The notes under the pieces were generated by a model. The model saw only the letters and a program-made list of their open reading frames with translations, had not been told where the DNA came from and ran no database searches. DNA of 64,000 nt from Escherichia phage KBNP1711: the sequence record NC_023593.1, one strand, 5' to 3'. The stretch's first letter is position 1. Every line of letters begins with the position of its first letter. This document shows positions 26,720 through 41,361 of this stretch, piece by piece. The translations under genes and the position numbers were made by a program.

Positions 26720-27091
26720 TTATTTCTCCAACACCGAGATGCTATATCTATCGTGTAAGGTTTTTCTAACCCAAGCAATGCGTTTAGGGTTTTTGTGATG
26801 AGAGCCTGTGTAACGTTCTCTGTGGTATGTGTCACAACCGAAAGGGTATACCGGGTCCTCAAACCCTTCGTGTTCAAACATATACGTCAGATCATTAAAG
26901 TCCGTATGTTTTGTGAAGAAGTAATAGCTTTTATAACAACGGTAGTTGAAACACAAACCGTGCTCAGGACTGAACCATTTTGGGTATTCGTCTGTCTGAG
27001 AGATGTTATAATACTGGAGGAGGAAATCCTCCATCCCCCTTTCTTTGGCAATACATCTTAGTGTTCGGTAAATAATGTTACTTTGTTTCAT
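26720..27091 (-). CDS. hypothetical protein
   Basis: 123-aa ORF. Confidence 0.4.
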   Translation of the reverse strand: MKQSNIIYRTLRCIAKERGMEDFLLQYYNISQTDEYPKWFSPEHGLCFNYRCYKSYYFFTKHTDFNDLTYMFEHEGFEDPVYPFGCDTYHRERYTGSHHKNPKRIAWVRKTLHDRYSISVLEK

Positions 27092-27100
27092 TGTGAATTC

Positions 27101-27586
27101 TCAATGTGTGTGATTCCAGTTTAATCCTATCTGACAATCAGATGCCAGAGGACATTCCATCTTGAGGTACTCACCAGCTTTCTTAACACAAAGCTCTGTA
27201 AGCTCTTTTAGCTTTTGTGCATCATTACGGTGAACAGAGAACTGCCCTTCATCGTGCATGTCAATAACCTTCGCACAACGAACACCATCACGCTCAATCC
27301 ACTTGTTAAGGAAAAGCATGGCATACTTCATAACAATCGCACCAGCACTCTGTAATAGGGTATTCAGTGCTTTATGAACCATTACCTTACCTGTTGCATC
27401 ACGTCTCATTGTAACACGACGACCATCAACACCCAAGATATAACCTTGAGCTGCCTTCTCTGTCATACGTTCAATAAGAATTGCAATACAAGGATTCTCT
27501 GCCAAGAAACGTGCTCTCATTACTGCACCTTCTTCAGAGCCTCCACCAACGATAGAACCGAGCTTAGCATCACCTGCCCCATCAAT
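27101..27586 (-). CDS. DNA polymerase (family A, T7 gp5-like), exon 2 / C-terminal part
   Basis: Reading frame open upstream of the track Met gives ...IDGAGDAKLGSIVGGG... then HKALNTLLQSAGAIV and HDEGQF (motif C), colinear with T7 DNA polymerase after motif B; 5' boundary approximate. Confidence 0.65.
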   Translation of the reverse strand: MDGAGDAKLGSIVGGGSEEGAVMRARFLAENPCIAILIERMTEKAAQGYILGVDGRRVTMRRDATGKVMVHKALNTLLQSAGAIVMKYAMLFLNKWIERDGVRCAKVIDMHDEGQFSVHRNDAQKLKELTELCVKKAGEYLKMECPLASDCQIGLNWNHTH

Positions 27587-28367
27587 AGTTCAAGCAAAGG
27601 CGCTACTCTTTGCTCCGTTCTCTTATGAACTGCTTACAGTTTCCTGTAAGATCGGACTATATCTTCATCTCCACCTTTACGTGCTGAGAGACAGGCGCTT
27701 CCGTAACACTTGTTACGTACTCCCTTCCGGGATAGTCTCTGAACTTTCCGTGACACAAACTTTTCTACATAGATCAATGAACTGAGCATCAGATAGTTTA
27801 CCTTTTGCATTATTCACTTCCCAAGTTACCCATTGGACATTTCCAATTTCGTAACCTTTCGAATTATCCTTCCTATCTAAAGAAAGTTTATTCGGATGTC
27901 CGCTGACGAAAGATAGTGAATCTCCTGTCAAGGCACATTTGTAGTTTTGCTGAGAAAGAAGCTCGAATAAATAGTCTTGAGTAATCGTGAACTCAAAACC
28001 CCTTTCTCTAGCTCTGTGATGGGAGTTGTGATATCTCTCACGAACCGCTCCACCCCAAGTTTGTCGATATTGTCCCATAGCAGCAGATGCTGCACTTCTG
28101 TTTCGACGTCTCCACTCATTTGAAGCAATGAGAGCACAATTTTTTACATTGACATTGCTTTCCATCTTTACTCTTAGATGAATTATGGAAACTGTCGAGT
28201 GGCTTTTCTTCGCCACAGCTTGAACATATCTTTGTCATAAACACCTCCTTGTGTTGATGTTTATGTCACGGCTTAGCTGCTGATTGGCATATCTTTCGAC
28301 TTAGCTTTCCAGCAATTCACCTGTTTTGCTTCTGCACATTTCTATGCAGTGAACCAATTATTTAGTT
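27587..28367 (-). mobile_element. intron (group I-like) carrying an HNH homing endonuclease ORF, inserted at polymerase motif B
   Basis: Polymerase frame broken by stops between ...RDNAKTFIYAF and IDGAGDAKLG...; intervening ~780 nt has its own RBS and endonuclease ORF; boundaries +/- about 10 nt. Confidence 0.55.
27713..28238 (-). CDS. intron-encoded HNH homing endonuclease with apparent frameshift
   Basis: ATG 28238 with AAGGAGGTG RBS encodes MTKICSSCGEEKPLDSFHNSSKSKDGKQCQCKK then stops; HNH domain (HNSHHRARERGFEF...DRKDNSKGYEIGNVQWVTWEVNNAK) continues in another frame after an A6 run near 28140. Confidence 0.6.
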
Positions 28368-29729
28368 AAAGGCATATATAAATGTCTTCGCATTGTCACG
28401 AGTAGGAAGACCAGCAAGTCTCTGATTATGAGAATGGATATCACCTTCTAACAGAATATCACGATACATAACAGCAGAAGCTAAACCACGTTCAGCTAAT
28501 GCTTTCTTACCAGCGTTACCTTCTGCAATTGCTTCAGCAAGCATGTCTCTACACTCTTTAATGAGGTAGTGAGCAAGCATACGAAGCTCTAATCCAGAAC
28601 CATCATAACCTAGGAAGAGTTCTCTACCAGCTGGTACATAATACTTATATAACCCTACTGGTTTGTCTTTCTTTCCGGGTTTTCCACGTTCGTAGATAAC
28701 GTTTGTATTTTTTCGTAAGTAACACCCATCAGGGATATTGTTGGTAATGATGAAAGGATAGTTATGACTATCATCTGTGGAGTAGTTAGATTGAAATAAA
28801 CTCCTACACTCGTGACCAAACAGACCGCGAGAAGGAATATTAACAACAATGCGATGTTTAAAACGAAATGTCGGAGTAGCGCAGCTATTAGCTTCCGCTG
28901 AGAGTTTACCATCTGGACGTTCCTTATCAATCAGTCCATTAATCAAGCCTAGTCTGTGAGCCGCTACAACACGTCTCTTAAGCAGACTTCCCACCTTACC
29001 TAGATCACCCTCAAGACCTTCTTCAAGAGTCTCTTCGAGGTTTGTAGGAGCTGTGGGCCACTTGTTCGAAGTAGCTAATGCTCTCTTAATTTCATCAAAG
29101 GTTACAGGTTTCTTCCTGTTAGGGTTTAAACCTAAACCAAAGACATAAGCCTTCATGTAGTTGACAGTTTTGTGACGAAAGTGCTTATCCAAGAATTTCT
29201 TGATATCAGCATCAACCATCTGAGCTGTCTGTCGCTCTTTCTCATTGCCACGCATCCAAGAGTTGTACCATTCTTGATACGTTCCACACTTACGCAAGGC
29301 TCGCTTAATCTCAAATGTGTTCCAAGGCTTCTTAGATGTATTAAATTCTGGAGGAAGAAAACCTTCATCCATCAGTGCTTCTTTAACTCGTGCATCCTTT
29401 GATGGGTCAAAGTCAACATACTCAACACAAGTAAAAGCTCCACCGATATCTTCCCTCTTTAACCCCACTCTGTCACAATATAATTGAGGCCACTTCTGAA
29501 GAGCACCAGTCTTCTTAAAGGGTTTCATGTAAGTAGAACCATCAACCCTCATCTTAGGTAACAGAGGAATCAGCTCTCTGTCGATGTTAACGATAATCTC
29601 TCTGAGAAGGTGAACATACCACCGTGCATTCCTCCGATTAAAGTTGACACCACTCTTCGCTTGCTTTGAAATTATATCAGCGACAGTCATCTCCGTTAAG
29701 AACGGAAGTACATCAGGGTTCTCCATCAC
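28368..29729 (-). CDS. DNA polymerase (family A, T7 gp5-like), exon 1: polymerase domain through motif B
   Basis: GYDGSGLELRMLAHY (motif A) and LPTRDNAKTFIYAF (motif B/O-helix) align with T7 gp5 GIDASGLELRCLAHF / LPTRDNAKTFIYGF. Confidence 0.7.
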
Positions 29730-29741
29730 CCTCTCCTTTTA

Positions 29742-30119
29742 TTATCGGTATAGTAAATCTGTAAACGCTTGGTTGTCTGCTATTACGTCCAAAGCCTCAT
29801 CCGTGCTAGGAACTTCAGTTGCTTCCACTTGGTACGCAACTTCACGTACACGGAAAGCTCTTGCAGGAACCCTAAAGTCTGCATGTCTCTCCATAACATC
29901 TTTCTGAACCTGTGCAAGCTTCATACCCCACACTTCTTCATAAAGCTCTGGATGTTTGTTACTAATAACTACATACTGACGGTGTATGGATTTTGACTCT
30001 CTGACCTTAGCTAGTAGATCATTAAATAGATCTAACTCTTCTTCTGAGAGCGCATCTACAACGTCTTCCCACTTCTCTACACAGAAGCGGTGGGCATGTC
30101 TGATAGGTAATGGCATCAC
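29742..30119 (-). CDS. hypothetical protein
   Basis: 125-aa ORF. Confidence 0.4.
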   Translation of the reverse strand: MMPLPIRHAHRFCVEKWEDVVDALSEEELDLFNDLLAKVRESKSIHRQYVVISNKHPELYEEVWGMKLAQVQKDVMERHADFRVPARAFRVREVAYQVEATEVPSTDEALDVIADNQAFTDLLYR

Positions 30120-30398
30120 TCACCCCTTAGGAAAAGGAATCAACAAATCAACTGCTGCTTGAATATCTTCTTGCACTTTAGGGTTTTTGTAAGAAACAAA
30201 ACGGCCTTTGCTGTCTCGAAGCATCACATTAGTGCGGGCAGTTTCTTTAAACATTAAGATATTTTCAGCGGCATCCCTCTCTTCCATCATACCAAAATCC
30301 ATAATATCTTCTGGAGCTGAGGCGATTTTGAGCTTGAAGGTCTGGCCTGTGCCGTTGTCGTAACGATCACTGATCTGGATAGTTTTCACCAGAGACAT
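30120..30398 (-). CDS. hypothetical protein (tandem paralog of 30400..30657)
   Basis: Shares TARTNVxLR..G.F.SYKN..V.......L.PFPKG with neighbour. Confidence 0.45.
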   Translation of the reverse strand: MSLVKTIQISDRYDNGTGQTFKLKIASAPEDIMDFGMMEERDAAENILMFKETARTNVMLRDSKGRFVSYKNPKVQEDIQAAVDLLIPFPKG

Positions 30399-30399
30399 A

Positions 30400-30657
30400 T
30401 TAAACTCCTTTAGGGAAAGGAAGAAGATTTTCTACTGCAACACGATAAACCTTTTCTACGTTTTTGTTTTTATAAGAGATGAACTTGCCATCAGCACCAC
30501 GAAGGATTACGTTAGTTCGAGCTGTCTTTGGGTTATGAGAAATCTGATTAGCAATGATAGACGCGTTAAGAGCATTCTCAGCATAATTAGTGAAGTTCCA
30601 TTTAACAAGTTTAGTAGAAAGAGAATCGATGATAGTTACAGTTTTTACGATAGACAT
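30400..30657 (-). CDS. hypothetical protein (tandem paralog of 30120..30398)
   Basis: Shared motif as above. Confidence 0.45.
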   Translation of the reverse strand: MSIVKTVTIIDSLSTKLVKWNFTNYAENALNASIIANQISHNPKTARTNVILRGADGKFISYKNKNVEKVYRVAVENLLPFPKGV

Positions 30658-30691
30658 ATTTTATTACCTAAAGGATTTGTATAAAAGAAAA

Positions 30692-30711
30692 GGCCACCCA
30701 AATGGGTAGCC
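30692..30711 (-). terminator. hairpin ggccaccc-aaat-gggtagcc with T-rich tail on - strand
   Basis: Intergenic; same GCCACCC stem family as at 22773 and 55503. Confidence 0.35.
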
Positions 30712-30716
30712 TCTGA

Positions 30717-31031
30717 TTAACTTGAGCTTAAAGCCCCTTTGCGACCGCCAGCTGATTTTCCAGCGCGATCTCCACTTTTGCCGCCAGCTGAACGATTTCC
30801 GCTGACTGTCTCAACACGTAAGTTGCTTGACGCATTAGAGCCTCCTGATTTAATGGCTCGTTTGTGTCCGACATCTTTACCTTTGAGTGCAGATTTTCCA
30901 ACGCGTTTTTCAACGATGCGACGTGCACGGTGGCGCTGAGCATCTCCGCTCTTACTTCCAACTCCCGTTTCACCTCTTGCGATGGCTGTACGTCTTTCTT
31001 GTGCATAATCTCTTTTAGCCTTATCAGTCAT
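30717..31031 (-). CDS. highly basic Gly/Ser/Lys/Arg-rich protein (possible nucleic-acid binding)
   Basis: AAGGAG RBS 6 nt before ATG 31031; overlapping alternative-frame ORF 30728..31006 lacks an RBS. Confidence 0.45.
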   Translation of the reverse strand: MTDKAKRDYAQERRTAIARGETGVGSKSGDAQRHRARRIVEKRVGKSALKGKDVGHKRAIKSGGSNASSNLRVETVSGNRSAGGKSGDRAGKSAGGRKGALSSS

Positions 31032-31102
31032 TTACAACTCCTTAATATATCAGTGTACACTAAGGAGTATACATTATGAGAGGGTAGCTTTAGTTGCCAG
31101 CT

Positions 31103-31288
31103 TTAGTCACACCACCCTGTAGGTGGTACAAAAGTGTCAGGAACATCAATAATAGTTGGTTCACCATCATTTACACAGGTATCTTCATTAAATTCTTCAC
31201 ACTCAAAACATGCTTGTTCAATGTTTTTGTAGAAGTCAATGGTAGAAGTACCATCACCACAGTCTCGGATAACTAGGGCAACTTGCAT
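31103..31288 (-). CDS. small acidic Cys-rich protein
   Basis: 61-aa ORF with CxxC-type spacing. Confidence 0.35.
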   Translation of the reverse strand: MQVALVIRDCGDGTSTIDFYKNIEQACFECEEFNEDTCVNDGEPTIIDVPDTFVPPTGWCD

Positions 31289-32029
31289 TTAATTACCACC
31301 CTTTTCCATAGCTTTAACGATTGCTTTACAGAAACCAGAACGAACAATATCATCTGAGTCGCCATCAACAATATCAGCGAACTCGTACAGGTCGTGATCG
31401 TCAATGAACTCAGTAGCCCAAGTAAGACCGCTCTCTCGGCCTTTCATATCGTGCTGGTTAGTGTCACCCATGCAGAACAGCTGGGATGTTTCACCCAAGC
31501 GAGTCATAATAGAGAATGCTTCATCTTTGGTTGTATTCTGGAACTCATCCACAATAACAATGGCATCATTGAAAGAGCGACCACGGAGATATTCCAGAGG
31601 CACAAACTCAATGTTCCCATTACCAAGCTGACATTCATAGAAACCTTTACCATACCGCTGAGTGATTACATCAACAATAGGCATCAGGTATGGTTCGAAC
31701 TTATCACGAAGCCCACCCGGAAGTAATCCAAGAGAGTTACCCATGCCAACAGAGGGTCGGCTAATGATAATCTTTTGAATCTTACCACTCTTCAGTGCAT
31801 CAATGACAGTAGAGGTGATGACGAACGTCTTACCACAGCCCGCAGGAGCGTCTGTGAACACCACTTGTTTAGTCTTGATAGCATTGAGTAGCTCAGATTG
31901 AAACTGATTCTGAGGGACCACTGGCTTCGCTAAAACAACCTCTTCATACTCACGCTTACCTTTCTTAGTGACTAAGGCTTCACGACGTAAATCTTTACGA
32001 GATTCTCTACGGGACTGTCTACGGCTCAT
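31289..32029 (-). CDS. phoH: PhoH-like ATPase
   Basis: Walker A FTDAPAGCGKTF and overall PhoH-like length and order. Confidence 0.8.
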   Translation of the reverse strand: MSRRQSRRESRKDLRREALVTKKGKREYEEVVLAKPVVPQNQFQSELLNAIKTKQVVFTDAPAGCGKTFVITSTVIDALKSGKIQKIIISRPSVGMGNSLGLLPGGLRDKFEPYLMPIVDVITQRYGKGFYECQLGNGNIEFVPLEYLRGRSFNDAIVIVDEFQNTTKDEAFSIMTRLGETSQLFCMGDTNQHDMKGRESGLTWATEFIDDHDLYEFADIVDGDSDDIVRSGFCKAIVKAMEKGGN

Positions 32030-32211
32030 TTTCGCTCTCCTAGCTCTTCGTAATTAAATACAGAGGTTCGACAATCTTTACATGTTGTTGTATAGACCCG
32101 AACATTAATGAACTTCTTGTTCTTCCCTTTGGTGGGTGAGCCTTTAGCAAGCTCGCTGATAACTTTAGAACTTAAGTTTAGGTTTGTTCCTTCACATTTA
32201 GAACACTTCAC
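32026..32211 (-). CDS. small zinc-ribbon protein
   Basis: CSKCEG...CKDC Cys pairs. Confidence 0.4.
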   Translation of the reverse strand: MKCSKCEGTNLNLSSKVISELAKGSPTKGKNKKFINVRVYTTTCKDCRTSVFNYEELGERK

Positions 32212-32378
32212 TCCGGCTCACCAACAGTAACATCCCATACAACTTGGGAGATGATGTTGTTAATCTGTTTGATTTGCTCGTGAGTCAGTTGCATACCTTT
32301 CATTTTCCGAGAGGCATTACTTCGTGCTCTTCGCTGACGATAGAAGTTATTCTTTTTAGTAGAGTGTAAGCTACTCAT
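32205..32378 (-). CDS. small basic protein (57 aa)
   Basis: ATGA stop/start overlap with upstream gene; translated by hand. Confidence 0.3.
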
Positions 32379-32560
32379 TTCACAACCTTAAATTTGAATG
32401 TTGTTGGGTGATAATAATGCAACCTGTTAATGGTGTGCTTTGTTTCAAGATATGTCCTACAGGAGTGACACATAACATGAGACAAACCAGTCACAGGATT
32501 GGGCTTAAAATTGATGATAGTCTTCTCTTTCTTACAGAAGCTACACACTTTCTTATCCAT
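32375..32560 (-). CDS. small zinc-ribbon protein
   Basis: CSFC...CHSC Cys pairs. Confidence 0.4.
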   Translation of the reverse strand: MDKKVCSFCKKEKTIINFKPNPVTGLSHVMCHSCRTYLETKHTINRLHYYHPTTFKFKVVK

Positions 32561-32708
32561 CTTCTCTCCTGCTAATCCTCTGAGTTGTGGGAACAGCAGT
32601 ATTCACATACTCCACAACAAGGACAAATCTCTACACTTGGGTCATATGCATCATCAACTGTCATCCCACACTTGGTGCAGAACACATCATCATCATCTTC
32701 TTCCAATA

Positions 32709-33365
32709 TTAATTCTCCAAAGTTTTCTTCAGAGCTGCCCACGAGATTGGGTAGAGTTTAGCCATCTCTTCATCCAGAGATTGAGCAAACACTCGAACTT
32801 CGTATTGAGCGTGAGAGGAGAGTCGCTGACGACACAACTCAAACCAGCCATACAAAGAACCAGTCCACACCCACTCAGTGATCATTCCCTGAGGAAGAAC
32901 AAATCGAGCTTGCTCTGGTGCAACGAATTCAATCAACTTGTCATATGCTGCTAGAGAGGCTTCATATGCATCGTTAATCAACATTAATGCTTCAGCTCGC
33001 TCTCCATCAATGAGTTGAACCCCTGAACCTGCATGGAGGTCCGAAGGTCTCGCAAAAATCTCTTTAGGGATGAAGACTTCAACTGCTCCATCTTTATACC
33101 TCCGGGACATTTCGTTCCACGAGAATCCAACCTGATGCTTGCCCAGCTGTCTCGCAATTGCGATAGGTGCTTTGCATCGGAAACTGACTTGCGGGTGCCT
33201 GAAAGGCGTGACATGCTTCTCTCTTGCGAGGAAGTTGATGAGACGTTCATCACGTTCATTTAAATCACCTTCACGGGTTACGCCAAAGGAAACTCGAGCT
33301 GCGTTTACTACGCTACGATCACTTCCCATAGCTTCGATTAATGTTGCTTGTAATTGTTCATTCAT
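32709..33365 (-). CDS. thyX: flavin-dependent thymidylate synthase (ThyX)
   Basis: FRHPQVSF...ARQLGKHQVGFSWNEMSRRY resembles the ThyX signature region. Confidence 0.75.
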   Translation of the reverse strand: MNEQLQATLIEAMGSDRSVVNAARVSFGVTREGDLNERDERLINFLAREKHVTPFRHPQVSFRCKAPIAIARQLGKHQVGFSWNEMSRRYKDGAVEVFIPKEIFARPSDLHAGSGVQLIDGERAEALMLINDAYEASLAAYDKLIEFVAPEQARFVLPQGMITEWVWTGSLYGWFELCRQRLSSHAQYEVRVFAQSLDEEMAKLYPISWAALKKTLEN

Positions 33366-33380
33366 CCGTGAATTTCCTTA

Positions 33381-33590
33381 TTAATATTCTTTTACATAAT
33401 AAACCACTAAGGTTCCCATCTCTGACAATGTTGATTTATGTAAGCTTACTTTACTATAAATCTTTGGAGCCATCTTAAGAGCCTTCTTAAAACGGCGAGC
33501 ATCTTTACGAGTAGCAAAGTGCTCTGTAACAGGTATAGACAGATCTTGGTAGATATAATATACCACCGTCCAATATTTTTTCATAATCAA
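33381..33590 (-). CDS. small basic protein, paralog family B
   Basis: KKYW...TRKDARRFKK...VYYV pattern shared with 35447..36083 genes. Confidence 0.4.
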   Translation of the reverse strand: MIMKKYWTVVYYIYQDLSIPVTEHFATRKDARRFKKALKMAPKIYSKVSLHKSTLSEMGTLVVYYVKEY

Positions 33591-33859
33591 ACACCTAGGG
33601 CAGTAGTTAAGAATGCTTTCAGGTTTGCTTCAGTCTGCATACCAGAGATGCTGTAGTGTGCACCACTGTTACGGTCAGGCACAACGAAAGCAGGGATACT
33701 TCGTACACCATACTTAACAGCTTGTTCACGACCATCACCTTCAAGGATATTAATCTCTTCCACTTCTACATCAAACTCCTTAACAACCTTCTCAAAGGTA
33801 GGAGCCATTGCTTTACATGGAGCACACTGATCACTATAAAACTTAATTACTTTACTCAT
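33587..33859 (-). CDS. thioredoxin-like protein (CAPC active site)
   Basis: KFYSDQCAPCKAMAP...GVRSIPAFVV; ATG 33859 with AAGGAA RBS. Confidence 0.6.
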   Translation of the reverse strand: MSKVIKFYSDQCAPCKAMAPTFEKVVKEFDVEVEEINILEGDGREQAVKYGVRSIPAFVVPDRNSGAHYSISGMQTEANLKAFLTTALGV

Positions 33860-34049
33860 TCTATTCCTTGTTAATAAACAGGTTGATATGATGCTGGGTA
33901 GCAGGAACAACAATAAAAGATTTATACTGACCTTTTGCTAAGTCATGAGCAATCTTCTTTGTCTGACCAAGACCCATCACACAGCCGCTAACGATAATGG
34001 CATGTGCTTGTAATTCTTCAGGTAGGTTTAGTTTCACTCTTTGGATTCC

Positions 34050-34235
34050 TTATAGCATACAAAGAATAATAACAAGAGGTAGTGTTATAGCAAAATGTAC
34101 CAGAACAACACTACCTAGCTTGATAGCTTTAACATCCTCTTCTGCTGGGTTTTCTTTAATTGCTAAATTTCGAGCTTTATATATAACAGTACCAACTATT
34201 AACGACCACACGGCCCACACAATCAGTGAAATCAT
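34050..34235 (-). CDS. small two-TM membrane protein (paralog pair)
   Basis: IVWAVWSLIVG...KENPAEE...AIKLGSVVLV pattern. Confidence 0.4.
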   Translation of the reverse strand: MISLIVWAVWSLIVGTVIYKARNLAIKENPAEEDVKAIKLGSVVLVHFAITLPLVIILCML

Positions 34236-34244
34236 ATCAAACCC

Positions 34245-34424
34245 TTATGCAGTCCACAGGTGGAGAAGGAAAGGAATCACAATAGTACAAACTACCAGAG
34301 CGATGCTGCCATGTTTAATAGCTTTAGCTTCACTTGGATTTTCTTTAAGCATCTGCTTCTGGGCCAGATAGACGATACCACCAATAATGATTGCCCAAAA
34401 AGACCATACGATTGCTGAAAACAT
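34245..34424 (-). CDS. small two-TM membrane protein (paralog pair)
   Basis: Internal Met of track ORF 34245..34631; IVWSFWAIIIG...KENPSEAKAIKHGSIALV. Confidence 0.4.
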   Translation of the reverse strand: MFSAIVWSFWAIIIGGIVYLAQKQMLKENPSEAKAIKHGSIALVVCTIVIPFLLHLWTA

Positions 34425-34485
34425 ATTCACATCCTTATAAAGAAGTTCGCCCCACCTCGGATTAGGAGACAGGGCGGAGGTTTGA

Positions 34486-35070
34486 TTAGTAAGACACGTC
34501 ACCACTGGAGTGGGACATGTTGCTCTTGACGAAGTAACAGAACTTTCCAAGACCTTCATTAATTTCTTGAAGCATACTCTGATCAACTGGATAGGTGCAC
34601 AAGTCTGAATCAAACTCGTCCATCTTCTCAATGATACACATAAGAGTCATGCACATGTCAGAAAGCATACCGTCCATGTCGAGATCAGCGTTACCTTCTC
34701 GGAACCAAGCACAACCAAGATAGCTACTAGCTGTTGCATCCACTTTAATGCAGTGATAACGCATTCGCTCTGCTACCCGATCACCAGTTTCACGAGCATA
34801 ATCTTCTAGTTCATCGAACATACCGTGAACACCTTGGAAACCAGCTCCAGAGACGTTCCAGTGATAGTTCTTTGATTTGATGTGTAGAAGTTCAAGGTTA
34901 GCCTGCACACCACACAGGATGTGCTCTAGGCTGTTACCGCTAATCAATTTATTCATTCCCTCTAGACGAGAGATAGAAGAGTCAGTTGTAGAGAATGGGT
35001 TGCTAGAACCCACTCGTGTCAGTTCAGGTAAGTCGAAGACATTATTATGCATTAGGTTCATCTCCTTCAA
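34486..35070 (-). CDS. Dps-like ferritin-fold protein
   Basis: YHWNVSGAGFQGVHGMFDELEDYARETGDRVAERM matches the Dps helix B/C signature. Confidence 0.5.
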   Translation of the reverse strand: MKEMNLMHNNVFDLPELTRVGSSNPFSTTDSSISRLEGMNKLISGNSLEHILCGVQANLELLHIKSKNYHWNVSGAGFQGVHGMFDELEDYARETGDRVAERMRYHCIKVDATASSYLGCAWFREGNADLDMDGMLSDMCMTLMCIIEKMDEFDSDLCTYPVDQSMLQEINEGLGKFCYFVKSNMSHSSGDVSY

Positions 35071-35374
35071 GCTCAGTAGAGTTAGCTACATTTCGTTCCA
35101 GATTTGAGATTACCTGTTGGGTGATAACGATGCAGTTCTGTGGGTCAACTGACTTAGAACGTCCCATCTCAGGGTCATACACCTTAACACGTTTTGCTGT
35201 AGAACCAGTTACCTGTAATACCTTGAGAAGATAACCCTGATTCCCGATAGACCATGCAACAACATCACGATTCTTGATGAATCGACCAAGCATATCACGA
35301 TGATAGAACTGCTGCATAACCTTTGATTTATTAATCTCTTCGGCTGGCGGAGCCACTTTACTCAAATCTAACAT
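35045..35374 (-). CDS. hypothetical protein
   Basis: 109-aa ORF. Confidence 0.4.
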   Translation of the reverse strand: MLDLSKVAPPAEEINKSKVMQQFYHRDMLGRFIKNRDVVAWSIGNQGYLLKVLQVTGSTAKRVKVYDPEMGRSKSVDPQNCIVITQQVISNLERNVANSTELEGDEPNA

Positions 35375-35446
35375 TTCACTCTCTCCTGTTTAACACAATA
35401 TTCTTATACTGTATATACATTTGAGAGTGATCATATCTACTACCAA

Positions 35447-35656
35447 TCAGTAGTAAATTACTTTAGACATAAAAGAACCAGTGTTAGGGTCTTCATGCCA
35501 GCGATGTATGTCAGCGCTTTTTACTATTGTGCCCAGAGTCTTCAACTGTTTCTTAGCAATACGAGCCTCTTTGCGAGTGTCAAACAATTTGATGTTATCT
35601 TTTCTCATATGTTGCTCAAGATCCCAAACAACATGAATAGCCCACATCTTTTTCAT
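35447..35656 (-). CDS. small basic protein, paralog family B
   Basis: Tandem array member. Confidence 0.45.
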   Translation of the reverse strand: MKKMWAIHVVWDLEQHMRKDNIKLFDTRKEARIAKKQLKTLGTIVKSADIHRWHEDPNTGSFMSKVIYY

Positions 35657-35871
35657 TAGTAATGTACCTTTCCGCTGATATAAATACGGCCTGAGGTATA
35701 CTCATAGCCCTTGAGAATCTTAACAGAGGTAGTGGAGCCATCGTTTAGTGCACAGATTGACTTCTTAAGATTGCGTGCATCTTCTCGTGTCTTCTGGTAG
35801 GTCATGGTCACACCCCCACTCTTCCACTCTGTTTTAACTAACCAAACTATTTTCATAAGACCTGCTCTCAT
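35656..35871 (-). CDS. small basic protein, paralog family B
   Basis: Tandem array member. Confidence 0.45.
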   Translation of the reverse strand: MRAGLMKIVWLVKTEWKSGGVTMTYQKTREDARNLKKSICALNDGSTTSVKILKGYEYTSGRIYISGKVHY

Positions 35872-36083
35872 TAGTAGTACACCTTGCTACCAGCCATAAA
35901 TGCCCCTGTTGAGTTTATCATGGCTTTGCTGATAGTAACTTTCTTACACCGTAAACATACCTTCCAGTTCTTTTTACAGATTCGAGCTTCTTGTCGAGTG
36001 TTACAAAAAATAGCCGAAGATATTTCTTGGGTGTTGTTATCATAAACACGAACACACCACTTTTTCATTGTTCCAAACTCCAC
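35871..36083 (-). CDS. small basic protein, paralog family B
   Basis: Tandem array member. Confidence 0.45.
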   Translation of the reverse strand: MEFGTMKKWCVRVYDNNTQEISSAIFCNTRQEARICKKNWKVCLRCKKVTISKAMINSTGAFMAGSKVYY

Positions 36084-36283
36084 TATCTGTCAACCGATTC
36101 AGGGACAAACTGCATTACACAGACCTGATTACGAGGAAGGTTTATTTCACAAGCGGCTTTTCTATCAGCAACCTTAGATGACGAGTTAGGGCCAATTTGA
36201 GCCATCATTAATCCCATAGCTAACATGCCGAGGATTACACCAATTGCTAAAGATGCTACAGTTTCTTGTTTCATCTTGATCAC
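36083..36283 (-). CDS. small membrane protein
   Basis: Hydrophobic ASLAIGVILGMLAMGLMMA segment. Confidence 0.35.
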   Translation of the reverse strand: MIKMKQETVASLAIGVILGMLAMGLMMAQIGPNSSSKVADRKAACEINLPRNQVCVMQFVPESVDR

Positions 36284-36813
36284 ACCCCTTTAGATGCAAC
36301 TACACCTTCAGAATTATTATAACGACCCTTCACTGCATATGAATGTTCCCCTGCATGAGAGTGCTCAAACATAACCATCTGACCAACACGCATACCAGCA
36401 CGAACTCGTAAGCTATGATGCTTGGTTACGTTATGGAATTCAAATGTCAGCTTACTGCTATTAAACCCTGCGTCTGCCCACCCAGCGTGGAGATGGTTCA
36501 AGCCACAACGAGCCATCGAAGACCGCAGGACAAACAAACTGGAGATGTTATCTGGAAGGTTAAACTCTTCCATCGAGTGAGCTAAGAAGAATTGTCCCGG
36601 AGTAATGATAATACCGTCTTCAGGGATTTTTACTTCTTTCCACTTGAGATTTTCTTTCGCATCAATGTCAACAATCCCATCAGCCTGTTCTTCAATAAGG
36701 ATAGTATCACCAATACGGATATCCACACTAGCAGCGTTAACATACTTATGCTCCGCATCCAGAAAACCGTTATCGATAACGTCGTGTAATTCCATGCTTC
36801 CTAATAAACTCAT
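36280..36813 (-). CDS. dCTP deaminase/dUTPase-family protein
   Basis: ASVDIRIGD and HAGWADAGF motifs. Confidence 0.65.
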   Translation of the reverse strand: MSLLGSMELHDVIDNGFLDAEHKYVNAASVDIRIGDTILIEEQADGIVDIDAKENLKWKEVKIPEDGIIITPGQFFLAHSMEEFNLPDNISSLFVLRSSMARCGLNHLHAGWADAGFNSSKLTFEFHNVTKHHSLRVRAGMRVGQMVMFEHSHAGEHSYAVKGRYNNSEGVVASKGV

Positions 36814-36827
36814 TCTTATTCCTTATG

Positions 36828-38108
36828 TTAATCTGTGATACTGTCGCTTTCGTCAACCCAGACTGGATTATTAATCTGTCCTAAACGACGAGCTGATGTT
36901 TCGTTAATAGAGTTAACCCCTGCTGTGCGAGGGTTTGTGTACCACGGTCGGACTATGCTACCCGACTGAATTGCTTGGTTTGCTTCTACATGCCACCTGT
37001 TTGATACCGTGTTGGCTTCAAAGTTACCACCCGCTCCACCACTGATAGGCACAGCTTGAGCTGGTTGATTTACTCGGTTAGTTCCTGCCCCAAAGGCTGC
37101 TGCAAATTCAGACACACGTGCACTAAATGAAGAACGAGCACGCTGAGGAGGTGATATATCATTTCGTGTATCTACTGCACGAGGCATAGCCCAAGTATCA
37201 TCTGTTGAGATATCAGGGGTAGGCTCTTGCTCTAGAGGTTGAAGATTAGCTGTCCATTGACTATTCAGTATACGATAGAAATCTGCACCATAACCACTTC
37301 GGATAACATCCTCTCTGACACCAAAGAAGCGACTGATATCCCCACCGATTCGGGCTAGTTTGTCATTGTATGCAGGTATGATTATTCCACCCTCTGTCAC
37401 TAAATCAGAGACACGACTTGTTGTAAGTGGTGAAGTGATCCAACAATAATAATCAGTAATGTGACCATCGTATCCGAAGAATGCAATCTCTGCATCAGGC
37501 CATTTCTTGTGGACATATGCCACTTCACGGTTAGAACAAACAGGGATTGCACCTGTTTCAGTCATTGCATAGAAGCCGTCAGAAGAGAACCAAAGTGAAT
37601 CTAGTGCTAAGAATCCACGACACACGCTCGGGAAAGTAGCAGCCAGCGCCCCAAGTGAGGTAGGTTCATTGAACATTAACTGAATCTTTGCACTCTGATA
37701 ATTAATCTCTAGGATATCTACAAAATTCAAAGAAGACCCAGGGGCATATTGATTATTACTTCGTCCAATATCCTGCTCAATGAGAAGAGATCTTGTTTCA
37801 ACACCATGAGCCTCTGCCCACTCTTTGAAATCTTCAAGGAACAAGCGAGCCTTAGCTCGCCACATCGACCGATCAGTTACAGACTGTCTCGGCAATCCAC
37901 CCTCTGTAGTGATGAGAAAGATATCAATGTCGTGAGGTTCACGCGTCTGAAAGATTGCATCCCTAACAGCACCACCTGCAATGATAGGGTACACACCATC
38001 AGGGATTAAACGGTTTGCAATCAACTCGTTAATTAACGTAAGACCAGACACAAGCTGCGGACTATCATCAATCCGACGACGAATTAGTGCATTAGGGATA
38101 TTATACAT
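36828..38108 (-). CDS. nucleotidyltransferase with CCA-adding-enzyme-like head domain
   Basis: IIAGGAVRDAIFQTREPHDIDIFL = GGxVRD...DxD motif of the Pol-beta-type tRNA nucleotidyltransferase/poly(A) polymerase head; long C-terminal region of unknown type. Confidence 0.5.
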   Translation of the reverse strand: MYNIPNALIRRRIDDSPQLVSGLTLINELIANRLIPDGVYPIIAGGAVRDAIFQTREPHDIDIFLITTEGGLPRQSVTDRSMWRAKARLFLEDFKEWAEAHGVETRSLLIEQDIGRSNNQYAPGSSLNFVDILEINYQSAKIQLMFNEPTSLGALAATFPSVCRGFLALDSLWFSSDGFYAMTETGAIPVCSNREVAYVHKKWPDAEIAFFGYDGHITDYYCWITSPLTTSRVSDLVTEGGIIIPAYNDKLARIGGDISRFFGVREDVIRSGYGADFYRILNSQWTANLQPLEQEPTPDISTDDTWAMPRAVDTRNDISPPQRARSSFSARVSEFAAAFGAGTNRVNQPAQAVPISGGAGGNFEANTVSNRWHVEANQAIQSGSIVRPWYTNPRTAGVNSINETSARRLGQINNPVWVDESDSITD

Positions 38109-38657
38109 TTACATTTTCCAATATAAAGATGGGGGGTCATTTGGGTCAAAGTTTGCAATATGGCAAAGATATTTATAAACCTTAACCGTTAAGTTTACGT
38201 CCTGTTCACAATAAGTAAACATGTCCTCTGTAAAGGCATCCCATGCTTCTTCCTGTTCACCGTAATCACCCTTAAGCTCTTCTAAGAACTCACCCCATTG
38301 CTTTAAGCCATGACCTCTTGGGCCATGTCTAGGGTCGCCTTTCGGATACTCAGGACTGTCACCAATACGGTCAGGTTTAAGATACCGACTCAGACATAAA
38401 GTGTCTAGGACGTTGAATTTGTAATCAATCAAATCAGGGTACATCTTCTTCAGAGCACATAAGTCGAAGTCAATAACGTTATGACCTACAACAACATCAG
38501 CCTCTGTAAGTTTCTTGATACCCTCTTCAATCTGGTGAGGGCGAAATCCCCACCGTTCACCAGTTGATATATCGAAGATAAAGATACACCATACGTTTGT
38601 GATATTGTCGTACAGTGCATCACTCTCAATATCAAATGCGTAGACTTTCTTTACCAC
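38109..38657 (-). CDS. 3'-5' exonuclease homologous to the proofreading domain of T7 DNA polymerase, encoded as a separate gene
   Basis: [36 protein letters not shown] align with the Exo I-III motifs of the T7 gp5 N-terminus. Confidence 0.75.
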
Positions 38658-40441
38658 GGGCTTTTCTCTCCATCTTGAGCAAGAAGTGATGCTGCATCCT
38701 CTCCATTTGTCAGCGAGAATGGGTTTTCTTCATCAATTTCATGATCTTCACGCTCAAGCAACCGTCCCGTCTCTCCTACATACTTCGTATAGCACACCCC
38801 TGTTTGTCCATAGTTACGCTCTTTGAGGAGTCGTATAATGGAGAGGTTCTTAGCCAGACCATCTGCTTGTTTGTCACGTTCAAAACCGATGATACATTGA
38901 CACCAACGCATAAGAGAACGAGAGCCAGTAAACTGTACCTCTCGAACCTGACCACCTTCTTCATGAGGTGCACCACCTGCCGGAGCATTGAGGTGAGATA
39001 GTACGAATGCTGTGAAGTTTAATTCTTGACACATACCAGCAAGCTCGGAAGCAATCTTACTGATTTCAGTGTTAATCTCTGAAGGTGTTAAATGAGACAC
39101 CAGAGCGGTAATGTTATCAAGGATGATAAACTTACACTGGTTTTCAACAACCCAGAAACGGATACACTGTTTAATGTCGGCCCATTCATTCTGACCAAAG
39201 TTATCATAGAGGAAGAATTTATCTGCATATCGAAGAGCTTCGTTACGCAATGTATCTTCATCATACTCAACATCAGGTCTATGGAAAGGAATAGATGCTG
39301 ACTTGCCTGCAATGTTCTTAACGGACATTCCGACCTTCTCTTCCAAGAAGAATCCGCCACCATTAAAACCATGCTCAAGGCAAAGCCAAGCAACCAGTTC
39401 ATGTGCAATCAATGTTTTACCAGAGCCTACACCACCACCAATTGCTACCATTTCTCCCCAACGAATACCGTAGGTCATCTCATTAAGAGTTTTCCACGGG
39501 TATGGGATACCCCACTCTGCTTTCTTCAGAGCATCATCTAAGCAATCAAAAACAGTTACAGCACCAGCTGGAGATTCCCGCTTCGCTGAATATTTAAGAA
39601 TGTTAAACAATTCCTGACCACGACCAGAGAGGAGCATATCATTCGCATCTTTAAGCTCTTTCTCAACACCGTTGTACTGGAAAGAACCTTTAGGAATACG
39701 AGCAAACTTCACATGTGGGAACAGAGCACGCCCTTTGGTAAGAGCAATCTCACCAGCATCATCGTTGTCCATACAAAGGACAACCTCTTCAAAACCATTC
39801 AAGAACTCACGGTTGCGAGACAGAACGGAAGAAATCGACCCTGCACCGAACGGTAAAGAGACACACGCTGGTTTAATGTTTGTTGCATTTGTAAAAGCTG
39901 TAAGAACGTGGAAGCCAGACATGCAAGACAAGGGGTCTTCAAAGATGAAGAGCTTCTTATTATACACATCTCCACGTTTAGCCTGTGCCATACCAAACAA
40001 ATCAGCTTCTTTCACACTACCGATGTAATAAAACTTTTTACTATCAAGTAGTTTAACCTCGTAACCGACAATGTTTCCGTCACGTTCACGAGGAAAGAAG
40101 TAACTGTCCGGTGTCTGACCATCAGTTTGACTGAGACCAATACGACATTCAAAACGCTCTGATACAGCTTTAGGGATTAATCGACGAGTGAGTTCTCCTT
40201 GAGGTAACTCCAAGCAATCATCCAAGACCTCTCGAAGTTCTTCAGGGGACAGCTCTTTCTTTTCATTTGGTGTAGGTGTCGTGCCTTTCTCAAAGACTTC
40301 GTAATTACCACACCGGTTACAACTACCCCACTCTTCACCGGATTCCTCATTACGGAAGAGAATCATGTGATTGTGGGTTTTATCACGACCATGAGAGATG
40401 CACTCCTTACAGCCTGTGTCTCCCAAAATGATCTTTGACAT
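38651..40441 (-). CDS. DNA primase/helicase (T7 gp4-like)
   Basis: N-terminal Cys4 zinc motif, primase region, Walker [10 protein letters not shown] and DnaB-like helicase motifs. Confidence 0.8.
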
Positions 40442-40478
40442 GCTCTATCCTCCTTGGATTCTCCTTGAGCAAACTACC

Positions 40479-40688
40479 TTACTTATAAAAACTTCGAATC
40501 ATGTCCCAGATTTCTTCCTGCTGGACCCTAAAGAAAGCTAAACGTGTCGATGTACGTTCGATAAACTCTTCACTATGCTTTTCTCTATCTAGCATACTGA
40601 CAAGCTTTTCGTATTTATTGATCTTCCATCGCATTTTTAAATAGTCTGATTCTAGTGTCCTTAACCTCTGACACTCAATCAAATCCAT
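40479..40688 (-). CDS. hypothetical protein
   Basis: 69-aa ORF. Confidence 0.35.
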   Translation of the reverse strand: MDLIECQRLRTLESDYLKMRWKINKYEKLVSMLDREKHSEEFIERTSTRLAFFRVQQEEIWDMIRSFYK

Positions 40689-41107
40689 CAGTTATCCTCT
40701 GACAGATAAAGAGACCAGTCACCAGATTCAACCAGTTCATCTTGCTCTTCATCAATGTGATAAATCCAAGCAGTGACAGTTTCACCACTATCCAGAACCA
40801 CTTCGATAGGTGTACGCTTGTAGAAAGTGTGTGGGTTGTCATTACCACGATGCCCTTCCAGCATGTCATAAGCGCCCTCAACACCATCCATATCCGTCTT
40901 AAACACTTCAACACGAACAGGTTTACCGTTACTGCTGTGTTCCAGAGAAACACTTGGGAAGTATGAACCACCGTAGCGGTACAGGTTGTAGTTTTCTTTA
41001 GTGAAACCTTCACCAATCGATTCAGCACCTGCACGAGCATTCACTCGGAAGTTAGCCTGACCAGTACGAAGAGAACCATAAGTTGCTACATAAATTACTT
41101 CTGACAT
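40688..41107 (-). CDS. gamma-glutamyl cyclotransferase-like (AIG2/GGCT fold) protein
   Basis: N-terminal VATYGSLRTG motif and length typical of GGCT-like proteins. Confidence 0.45.
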   Translation of the reverse strand: MSEVIYVATYGSLRTGQANFRVNARAGAESIGEGFTKENYNLYRYGGSYFPSVSLEHSSNGKPVRVEVFKTDMDGVEGAYDMLEGHRGNDNPHTFYKRTPIEVVLDSGETVTAWIYHIDEEQDELVESGDWSLYLSEDN

Positions 41108-41178
41108 TTTAAATACCTTTGTTCATTGTTTAGTTAATCCGAACTAGCCTCCTCTTTCGAAGAAGCTAGAGCAGATTG

Positions 41179-41361
41179 CTATGCTGTGAAGTTTTTGATT
41201 ACACCGCAAATAACATCTGTTTCAAACGTACCCACCAGAACATCGTCTCGGTAGAAGTTAATCGCTCTACCGTCTCGGTTAAAGTGATCTGCTTCAATGA
41301 GCATTGACTGTACCTGACCATCTGGAGTGGAGGTTCGAAAGATGACGTTATACTGACTCAT
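41179..41361 (-). CDS. hypothetical protein
   Basis: 60-aa ORF. Confidence 0.3.
   Translation of the reverse strand: MSQYNVIFRTSTPDGQVQSMLIEADHFNRDGRAINFYRDDVLVGTFETDVICGVIKNFTA

Follow-up and report, generated by a model that had tools for sequence, protein, structure and literature searches.

A T7-type DNA polymerase of Escherichia phage KBNP1711 encoded in three pieces: a free-standing proofreading exonuclease gene and an intron-split polymerase gene

Phages that carry separate genes for a DNA polymerase and its proofreading exonuclease have been described before. All LUZ24-group phages possess this arrangement according to a 2012 paper, and the LUZ24 polymerase gene carries an intron (PMC3517423) that splices in vivo (PMC10914365). 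A similar organization was reported for phiEco32 by Savalia in 2008, as cited in PMC3517423, and a 2023 paper described separate polymerase and exonuclease genes as common to all phiEco32/Kuravirus-like phages (PMC9965538). Here, we analyzed a stretch of 64,000 nucleotides (nt) from Escherichia phage KBNP1711 (NC_023593.1; hereafter the window), in which a preceding sequence-only reading had noticed a T7-like DNA polymerase that is encoded in pieces between positions 27,101 and 38,657. The replication module of this phage contains a T7-type family A polymerase that is distributed over three DNA pieces and two polypeptides. We regard this genetic architecture as practically certain; the complete reading, in which the two polypeptides associate physically to form a two-subunit replicase, is the one we favor, at a probability of about 0.7. 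The split layout itself is already known, since it has been published for phiEco32/Kuravirus-like and LUZ24-like phages and is annotated in the nearest relatives. Published accounts of the T7-type exonuclease/polymerase split and of introns in polymerase motif B date back to 2008-2012, and as a discovery these features carry little weight. The frameshift in the intron-borne endonuclease gene of the window, an intron version without open reading frame (ORF) in phage LAMP, and the presumably recurrent use of motif B as an intron site were found in the present analysis.

The exonuclease is encoded at 38109..38657 and comprises 182 amino acids (aa), which equal residues ~1-200 of T7 gp5; like every gene between 25 and 41 kb of the window, and like all window features described below, the gene lies on the minus strand. 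The initial assignment of this ORF to the N-terminal exonuclease domain of T7 gp5 was supported alike by PDB sequence search, Pfam, and fold search. Within E ≤ 10, the PDB sequence search returned T7 DNA polymerase chains only, aligned over residues 4-182 with E values of 2e-9 to 5e-8. Pfam DNA_pol_A_exo1 matched residues 5-164 with 26.2 bits (cut-off, 23.6 bits), and the PHROG families of the protein are named "DNA polymerase exonuclease subunit." The sequence contains DIESDAL (residues 9-15), GHNVIDFD (58-65), and YCEQDV (149-154), which align with the T7 gp5 motifs DIE (Exo I), HN...YD (Exo II), and YNVQD (Exo III). All catalytic residues of a DEDDy-type 3'-5' exonuclease are present, namely, D9/E11 (Exo I, DxE), N60/D65 (Exo II, Nx2-3[FY]D), and Y149/D153 (Exo III, Yx3D), and these six positions are invariant in 15 of 15 homologues with identities down to 49%. 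The 27 highest-ranking Foldseek matches of an AlphaFold model (predicted local distance difference test [pLDDT] score of 88.4) were all T7 gp5 (E, 5e-10 to 1e-7), followed at lower ranks by family B exonuclease domains (~1e-5) and the DnaQ-like nucleases RNase T and TREX (~2e-4). An identity as a DnaQ/epsilon-type nuclease was rejected: no DnaQ chain occurred among the PDB sequence matches, and DnaQ-like folds ranked far below T7 gp5, which is the closest relative by both sequence and predicted fold. When the exonuclease was compared to the phage collection by tblastn, 1861 records were matched, and nearly all matches listed fell under DNA polymerase features or, in LUZ24-like phages, under features called polymerase part or 3'-5' exonuclease. 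Sequence and model show the product of 38109..38657 to be a T7 gp5-type 3'-5' exonuclease domain that is complete, lacks no catalytic residue, and is predicted to be active.

The polymerase is encoded by two exons. Exon 1 (28364..29729) covers the thumb, palm motif A, and the fingers as far as mid-motif B and is collinear with T7 gp5 from ~residue 200; exon 2 (27101..27582; Pfam DNA_pol_A, 1.6e-16) supplies the remainder of motif B together with motif C (HDE) and the C terminus. In the unspliced sequence, a 455-aa ORF (29729..28362) meets a stop directly after RDNAKTFIYAFN, and the frame at 27586..27101 corresponds to the last 160 positions of the Pfam DNA_pol_A profile. Joining of the exons yields an ORF of 615 codons with no internal stop. 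The intron-less relatives WFI101126, EP335, and 172-1 encode the polymerase as one 614-aa protein containing KTFIYAFNYGAGDAKLG, and the spliced product is in register with them residue for residue over the junction. Translation likely starts at ATG 29726, which is preceded by the Shine-Dalgarno sequence AAGGAGAG, or else at GTG 29729. Motifs A, B, and C follow each other in order: motif A (DxSxLE type, here YDGSGLELR) at 28607..28581 (residues 375-383 of the spliced protein), motif B (RxxAKxxxYxxxYG) at residues 444-457, cut by the intron as RDNAKTFIYAFN|YG, and motif C at 27259..27242 (residues 564-569). The sequence-only reading had recognized two exons, with motif A in the first and motif C in the second, and both placements hold, as do its other statements on the sequence. 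Motif B, which it had put into 28368-29729, is itself cut by the intron, and the exon edges of 28368 and 27586 are each 4 nt away from the true ones at 28364 and 27582.

T7 gp5 was the best PDB match of the polymerase by sequence (E, 1e-31) and the best structural match (E, 2e-25) of a model of its 88%-identical homologue P0033 (pLDDT, 90.7). The alignment of the spliced protein to T7 gp5 begins at ~residue 217 by BLAST and at 297 by phmmer and extends to residue 704. No exonuclease motif was found in the polymerase ORF, whose N terminus maps to ~T7 gp5 residue 200. The lengths of its 120 best homologues range from 369 to 618 aa, and none has ~700 aa. The claim that the polymerase has no exonuclease of its own thus stands, and a residual exonuclease domain was rejected on the basis of the position of the N terminus. 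At the position of the T7 thioredoxin-binding loop, the polymerase carries an insertion (residues ~56-110; 29564..29400) that is ~30 aa shorter than that of T7 and for which an ordered structure is predicted (pLDDT, 86-90). A thioredoxin gene of the phage is located between both polymerase parts (33913..33587), and a pairing of phage thioredoxin with the T7-like polymerase for processivity has already been hypothesized in the Privateer paper for that relative (PMC7881722).

The exonuclease and polymerase proteins correspond to the two halves of one T7 gp5-type enzyme. When they were joined end to end, the concatenate was collinear with residues 1-704 of T7 gp5, and a single BLAST high-scoring segment pair ran over the junction (concatenate residues 9-328 versus T7 residues 5-373; E, 3e-22). 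The C terminus of the exonuclease, SLYWKM, lies opposite TTFWSE of T7 (~residues 198-200), in agreement with the proposal that the exonuclease ORF ends where T7 gp5 enters its polymerase domain. The coding sequence is broken exactly at the boundary of the exonuclease and polymerase domains (~T7 residue 200), with a block of nucleotide-metabolism genes inserted there; the gap between the exonuclease gene (38109) and the polymerase gene (29729) measured 8380 nt, compared to ~8.4 kb in the sequence-only reading. The order of primase/helicase, exonuclease, and polymerase genes is that of T7 (gene 4, gene 5). The simplest history would be a gene fission at the domain linker via the insertion of other genes.

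The polymerase exons are separated by a group I intron of 781 nt (27583..28363), which was identified by Rfam Intron_gpI and by comparison with intron-less homologues; its borders were set by DNA alignment to WFI101126, EP335, and 172-1. The insertion splits the Tyr codon of "YG" in motif B behind its first base (KTFIYAFN|YGAG), and excision restores the reading frame. The last base of exon 1 (28364) is a U that pairs with a G in the P1 of the Rfam model, and the intron ends in G (27583). Two matches to RF00028 were obtained, with 34.7 bits (28373..28075) and 48.1 bits (27890..27633). Both are below the gathering threshold of 50 bits because an ORF inserted in the P6 loop splits the match; the existence of two separate introns was rejected, since the matches represent the halves of a single one. 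The same intron occurs at the same site in phage LAMP (L004, 2491-2754), where it lacks the ORF, has a length of ~268 nt, and scores 100.8 bits; it is 99.7% identical to the window intron over the shared parts. We conclude from these sequence comparisons that the element is a mobile group I intron, and it would be expected to self-splice from the mRNA. The intron-split polymerase gene of the sequence-only reading is accordingly a gene with a group I intron that holds an HNH/EndoVII-like ORF.

This ORF (27713..28238) resembles homing endonuclease genes of the HNH/EndoVII type (PHROG endonuclease VII, 5e-30; HNH); Pfam gave no match to the intron endonuclease, including the intact Bas89 protein. 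In Bas89 (KarlSchell_Bas89), the ORF is intact and encodes 174 aa, whereas the window has an indel of +1 nt in an A run near 28145 (A6 versus A5 in Bas89). The start codon, ATG 28238, lies behind AAGGAGG-N6. As a result of the +1 frameshift, translation from this start yields only a 37-aa zinc-finger-like peptide, with the nuclease part in another frame. Either the homing endonuclease is in decay or the extra A is a sequencing error in the homopolymer; the intron core is unaffected. Between the window and Bas89, the intron is 99.4 to 100% identical and the flanking exons are 97.7% identical; this higher identity of the intron is consistent with recent intron mobility. Among distant exonuclease-less polymerases (44-79% identical, including those of Aeromonas phage BUCT695 and LUZ24), many are called as products of ~440-460 aa that end within motif B (P0047-P0049, P0117, P0126, P0129, P0132-P0135, and P0148-P0150; also L007 7129-7766). 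Two end points are seen in these truncated products, one behind K(T/S)F(I) and the other behind YAF(L/N). In the exonuclease-less polymerase clade, motif B is presumably a recurrent target of introns, with unrelated endonuclease ORFs.

The source phage belongs to the Gordonclarkvirinae (phiEco32/Kuravirus-like coliphages), whose members include phiEco32, YF01, and LAMP, and is closest to Bas89 and EP335 (genus Nieuwekanaalvirus). At the DNA level, the 11.6-kb region matched 97 phage records, all of them from Escherichia/Shigella phages of the phiEco32/Kuravirus group. The best match was Bas89 (PQ850613), with 92.6% identity over 81% of the region, and the polymerase gene including the intron was 98.3% identical. 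Three free-standing HNH endonuclease genes are present in Bas89 (L001; 6333-6827, 11481-11990, and 16149-16640), and no corresponding ORFs were seen in the window, from which these genes appear to be absent; they probably account for much of the uncovered 19%. This agrees with the BASEL paper, which describes the locus as syntenic apart from homing endonuclease insertions and in which the intron and the exonuclease are not discussed.

Beyond this group, the split arrangement is widespread. Close homologues of the exonuclease (at least 46% identity) are all free-standing and mostly 163-193 aa long, and the free-standing exonuclease is conserved wherever the exonuclease-less polymerase occurs. 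An exhaustive profile search with the exonuclease gave 4134 clusters. Of the best 150, 46 have no more than 300 aa and 80 exceed 540 aa, the size of a fused T7-type polymerase, so that fused and split forms are both common; in nearly all of the long relatives listed, the match is near the N terminus. At least five distant pairs of exonuclease and polymerase matches lie on a shared contig (contigs of 81643, 86560, 88363, 112127, and 20510 bp). The comparison of the locus in related phages showed the same layout, i.e., primase/helicase, exonuclease, a variable insert, and polymerase, in the window, Bas89, WFI101126, LUZ24, and the metagenome contig L008. The insert measures 8.4 kb in the window, 3.2 kb in L008, and 2.3 kb in LUZ24; in L008, a metagenomic relative with ~47-50% identity, it includes dCTP deaminase and ThyX genes. 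The junction of the helicase and exonuclease genes varies from an overlap of 7 nt in the window and 17 nt in LUZ24 to a gap of 8 nt in L008.

The T7 gp4-like primase/helicase gene of the window (38651..40441; Pfam DnaB_C and Toprim_2, "DNA primase/helicase" in Bas89) is directly upstream of the exonuclease gene. The overlap arises because the exonuclease ORF begins with GTG at 38657, ahead of the TAA stop codon of the primase/helicase gene (38653-38651). The exonuclease stop abuts the ATG of the next gene (38108), which encodes a 426-aa "nucleotidyltransferase" (38108..36828; PHROG 12715), and the helicase, exonuclease, and nucleotidyltransferase genes are consequently tightly packed. The latter is the first gene of the 8.4-kb block of nucleotide-metabolism and small genes (29730..38108; Pfam, PHROG), which is syntenic with Bas89 and WFI101126. 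The remaining genes that the sequence-only reading had named in this block were recovered by Pfam/PHROG: a dCTP deaminase-like gene (36813..36280), a ferritin/Dps-like gene (35070..34486), the thioredoxin gene, ThyX (33365..32709), and PhoH (32029..31289). The nucleotidyltransferase is supported by PHROG only, as its product gave no Pfam match, and the block holds further genes besides these six. In a promoter/terminator scan of 26800-41200, counts were at chance expectation and only two strong hairpins stood out. These terminator-like structures, each with an 11-bp stem and a T-rich tail, are located between the exonuclease and polymerase genes at 34476..34448 and 30714..30689; the exonuclease and the polymerase may accordingly belong to different transcription units. 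WFI101126 has two annotated terminators in the same region.

How, then, would the pieces work together? Since the intron interrupts the polymerase gene, the full-length enzyme needs intron removal from the mRNA, which the intron would achieve by self-splicing. In the two-subunit replicase that we favor, the 182-aa exonuclease would bind the polymerase noncovalently at the surface where the exonuclease domain of T7 gp5 packs and would proofread the primer end in trans, and its translation would be coupled to that of the primase/helicase. Some points weigh against this model. The two hairpins imply that the amounts and the timing of the two proteins need not match. The window intron itself scored under the Rfam gathering threshold, with its match split by the ORF; splicing was demonstrated for the LUZ24 intron at a neighboring site, and that of the window intron is predicted. 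The exonuclease could also be an autonomous enzyme instead of a polymerase subunit, which we consider unlikely: it would then proofread in trans without stable binding or act in recombination, end processing, or host DNA degradation, leaving the polymerase without attached proofreading. The 8.4-kb distance between the genes and the hairpins within it would fit such a role; moreover, autonomous function is common among DEDD nucleases, which the fold search also found at lower scores. However, the protein is specifically the proofreading domain of T7 gp5, including the linker region to ~T7 residue 200, and it co-occurs with exonuclease-less polymerases in distant lineages. Among the 150 relatives that scored best, 80 have the size of fused polymerases, and the match lies close to the N terminus in nearly all of those listed, which likewise speaks against autonomy.

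In the window, LUZ24, and L008 alike, the exonuclease gene is the immediate downstream neighbor of the primase/helicase gene, which raises the question of whether the exonuclease is tethered to the helicase instead of the polymerase, so that proofreading would ride on the helicase. We judge this to be improbable, because no sequence feature suggests helicase binding and because the adjacency needs no functional explanation if the ancestral T7 gene order was kept and the polymerase half moved away. A related and rather speculative idea, to which we likewise assign a very low probability, is that the proofreading subunit is perhaps not a fixed part of the polymerase and associates with the replisome in a regulated or substoichiometric manner or via the helicase. 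Its putative cotranslation with the primase/helicase, as part of an upstream transcription unit, could point to such a nonfixed association. If this holds true, fidelity would be tunable during infection, and the family A replisome would have an architecture that has not been described for T7. Finally, the split could be thought of as an artifact of a frameshift or misassembly or as a decaying pseudogene arrangement, given that one frameshift does exist nearby, in the intron ORF. The chance of this is negligible, as conservation data already refute it: the two parts are separated by six conserved genes that can be identified, the 97 matching phage records and independent metagenome contigs show the same layout, and the catalytic residues of the exonuclease are invariant.

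The locus, in which the phage encodes a thioredoxin and a polymerase whose T7-like thumb insertion is shortened, would be a convenient natural system for the study of trans-acting proofreading by a family A replicase. Among described phages, Bas89 shares the locus gene for gene; its exonuclease is annotated as "DNA polymerase exonuclease subunit," and its polymerase is recorded as a joined (spliced) coding sequence with an intron "endonuclease." The polymerase of LAMP is also recorded as a joined coding sequence, and WFI101126, EP335, and 172-1, like most members of the group, have a polymerase without an intron. The same three-piece architecture and gene order are displayed by Pseudomonas phage LUZ24 (Bruynoghevirus), with gp24 as primase/helicase, gp25 as exonuclease subunit, and gp34/gp36 as "DNA polymerase part II," interrupted by a group I intron with the EndoVII gene gp35. 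The LUZ24 exonuclease is 35% identical to that of the window (E, 2e-31), and the polymerases of the LUZ24 group (phage tf and relatives) are ~40% identical to the window polymerase. The two systems differ in the distance between the exonuclease and polymerase genes, which is 2.3 kb in LUZ24 compared to 8.4 kb here, and in their introns. The LUZ24 intron is also a phase 1 insertion in motif B; however, it has a length of 669 bp and follows KTFI + 1 nt, four codons upstream of the window site, and its EndoVII ORF showed no similarity to the window intron ORF.

T7 gp5 (PDB 1T7P and others) is the best sequence and fold match to both parts, with which it shares Exo I-III, motifs A, B, and C, and the T7-type Tyr in motif B (KTFIY). 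The T7 enzyme is one chain of 704 aa, whereas that of the window consists of two chains split at ~residue 200. Apart from the thioredoxin-binding thumb insertion, which is ~30 aa longer in T7, the polymerases differ by extra insertions in the window protein, one of ~70-100 aa behind T7 residue 373 and two that flank motif A (~44 aa on its N-terminal side and ~25 aa on its C-terminal side). A functional analogy is provided by E. coli Pol III, in which the polymerase (alpha) and the 3'-5' exonuclease (epsilon, DnaQ) reside on separate polypeptides, so that proofreading is carried by a separate subunit in that enzyme as it would be in the window. The analogy does not extend to the proteins themselves: Pol III belongs to family C and DnaQ to another DEDD branch, and the window exonuclease shows weak fold matches to DnaQ-like nucleases.

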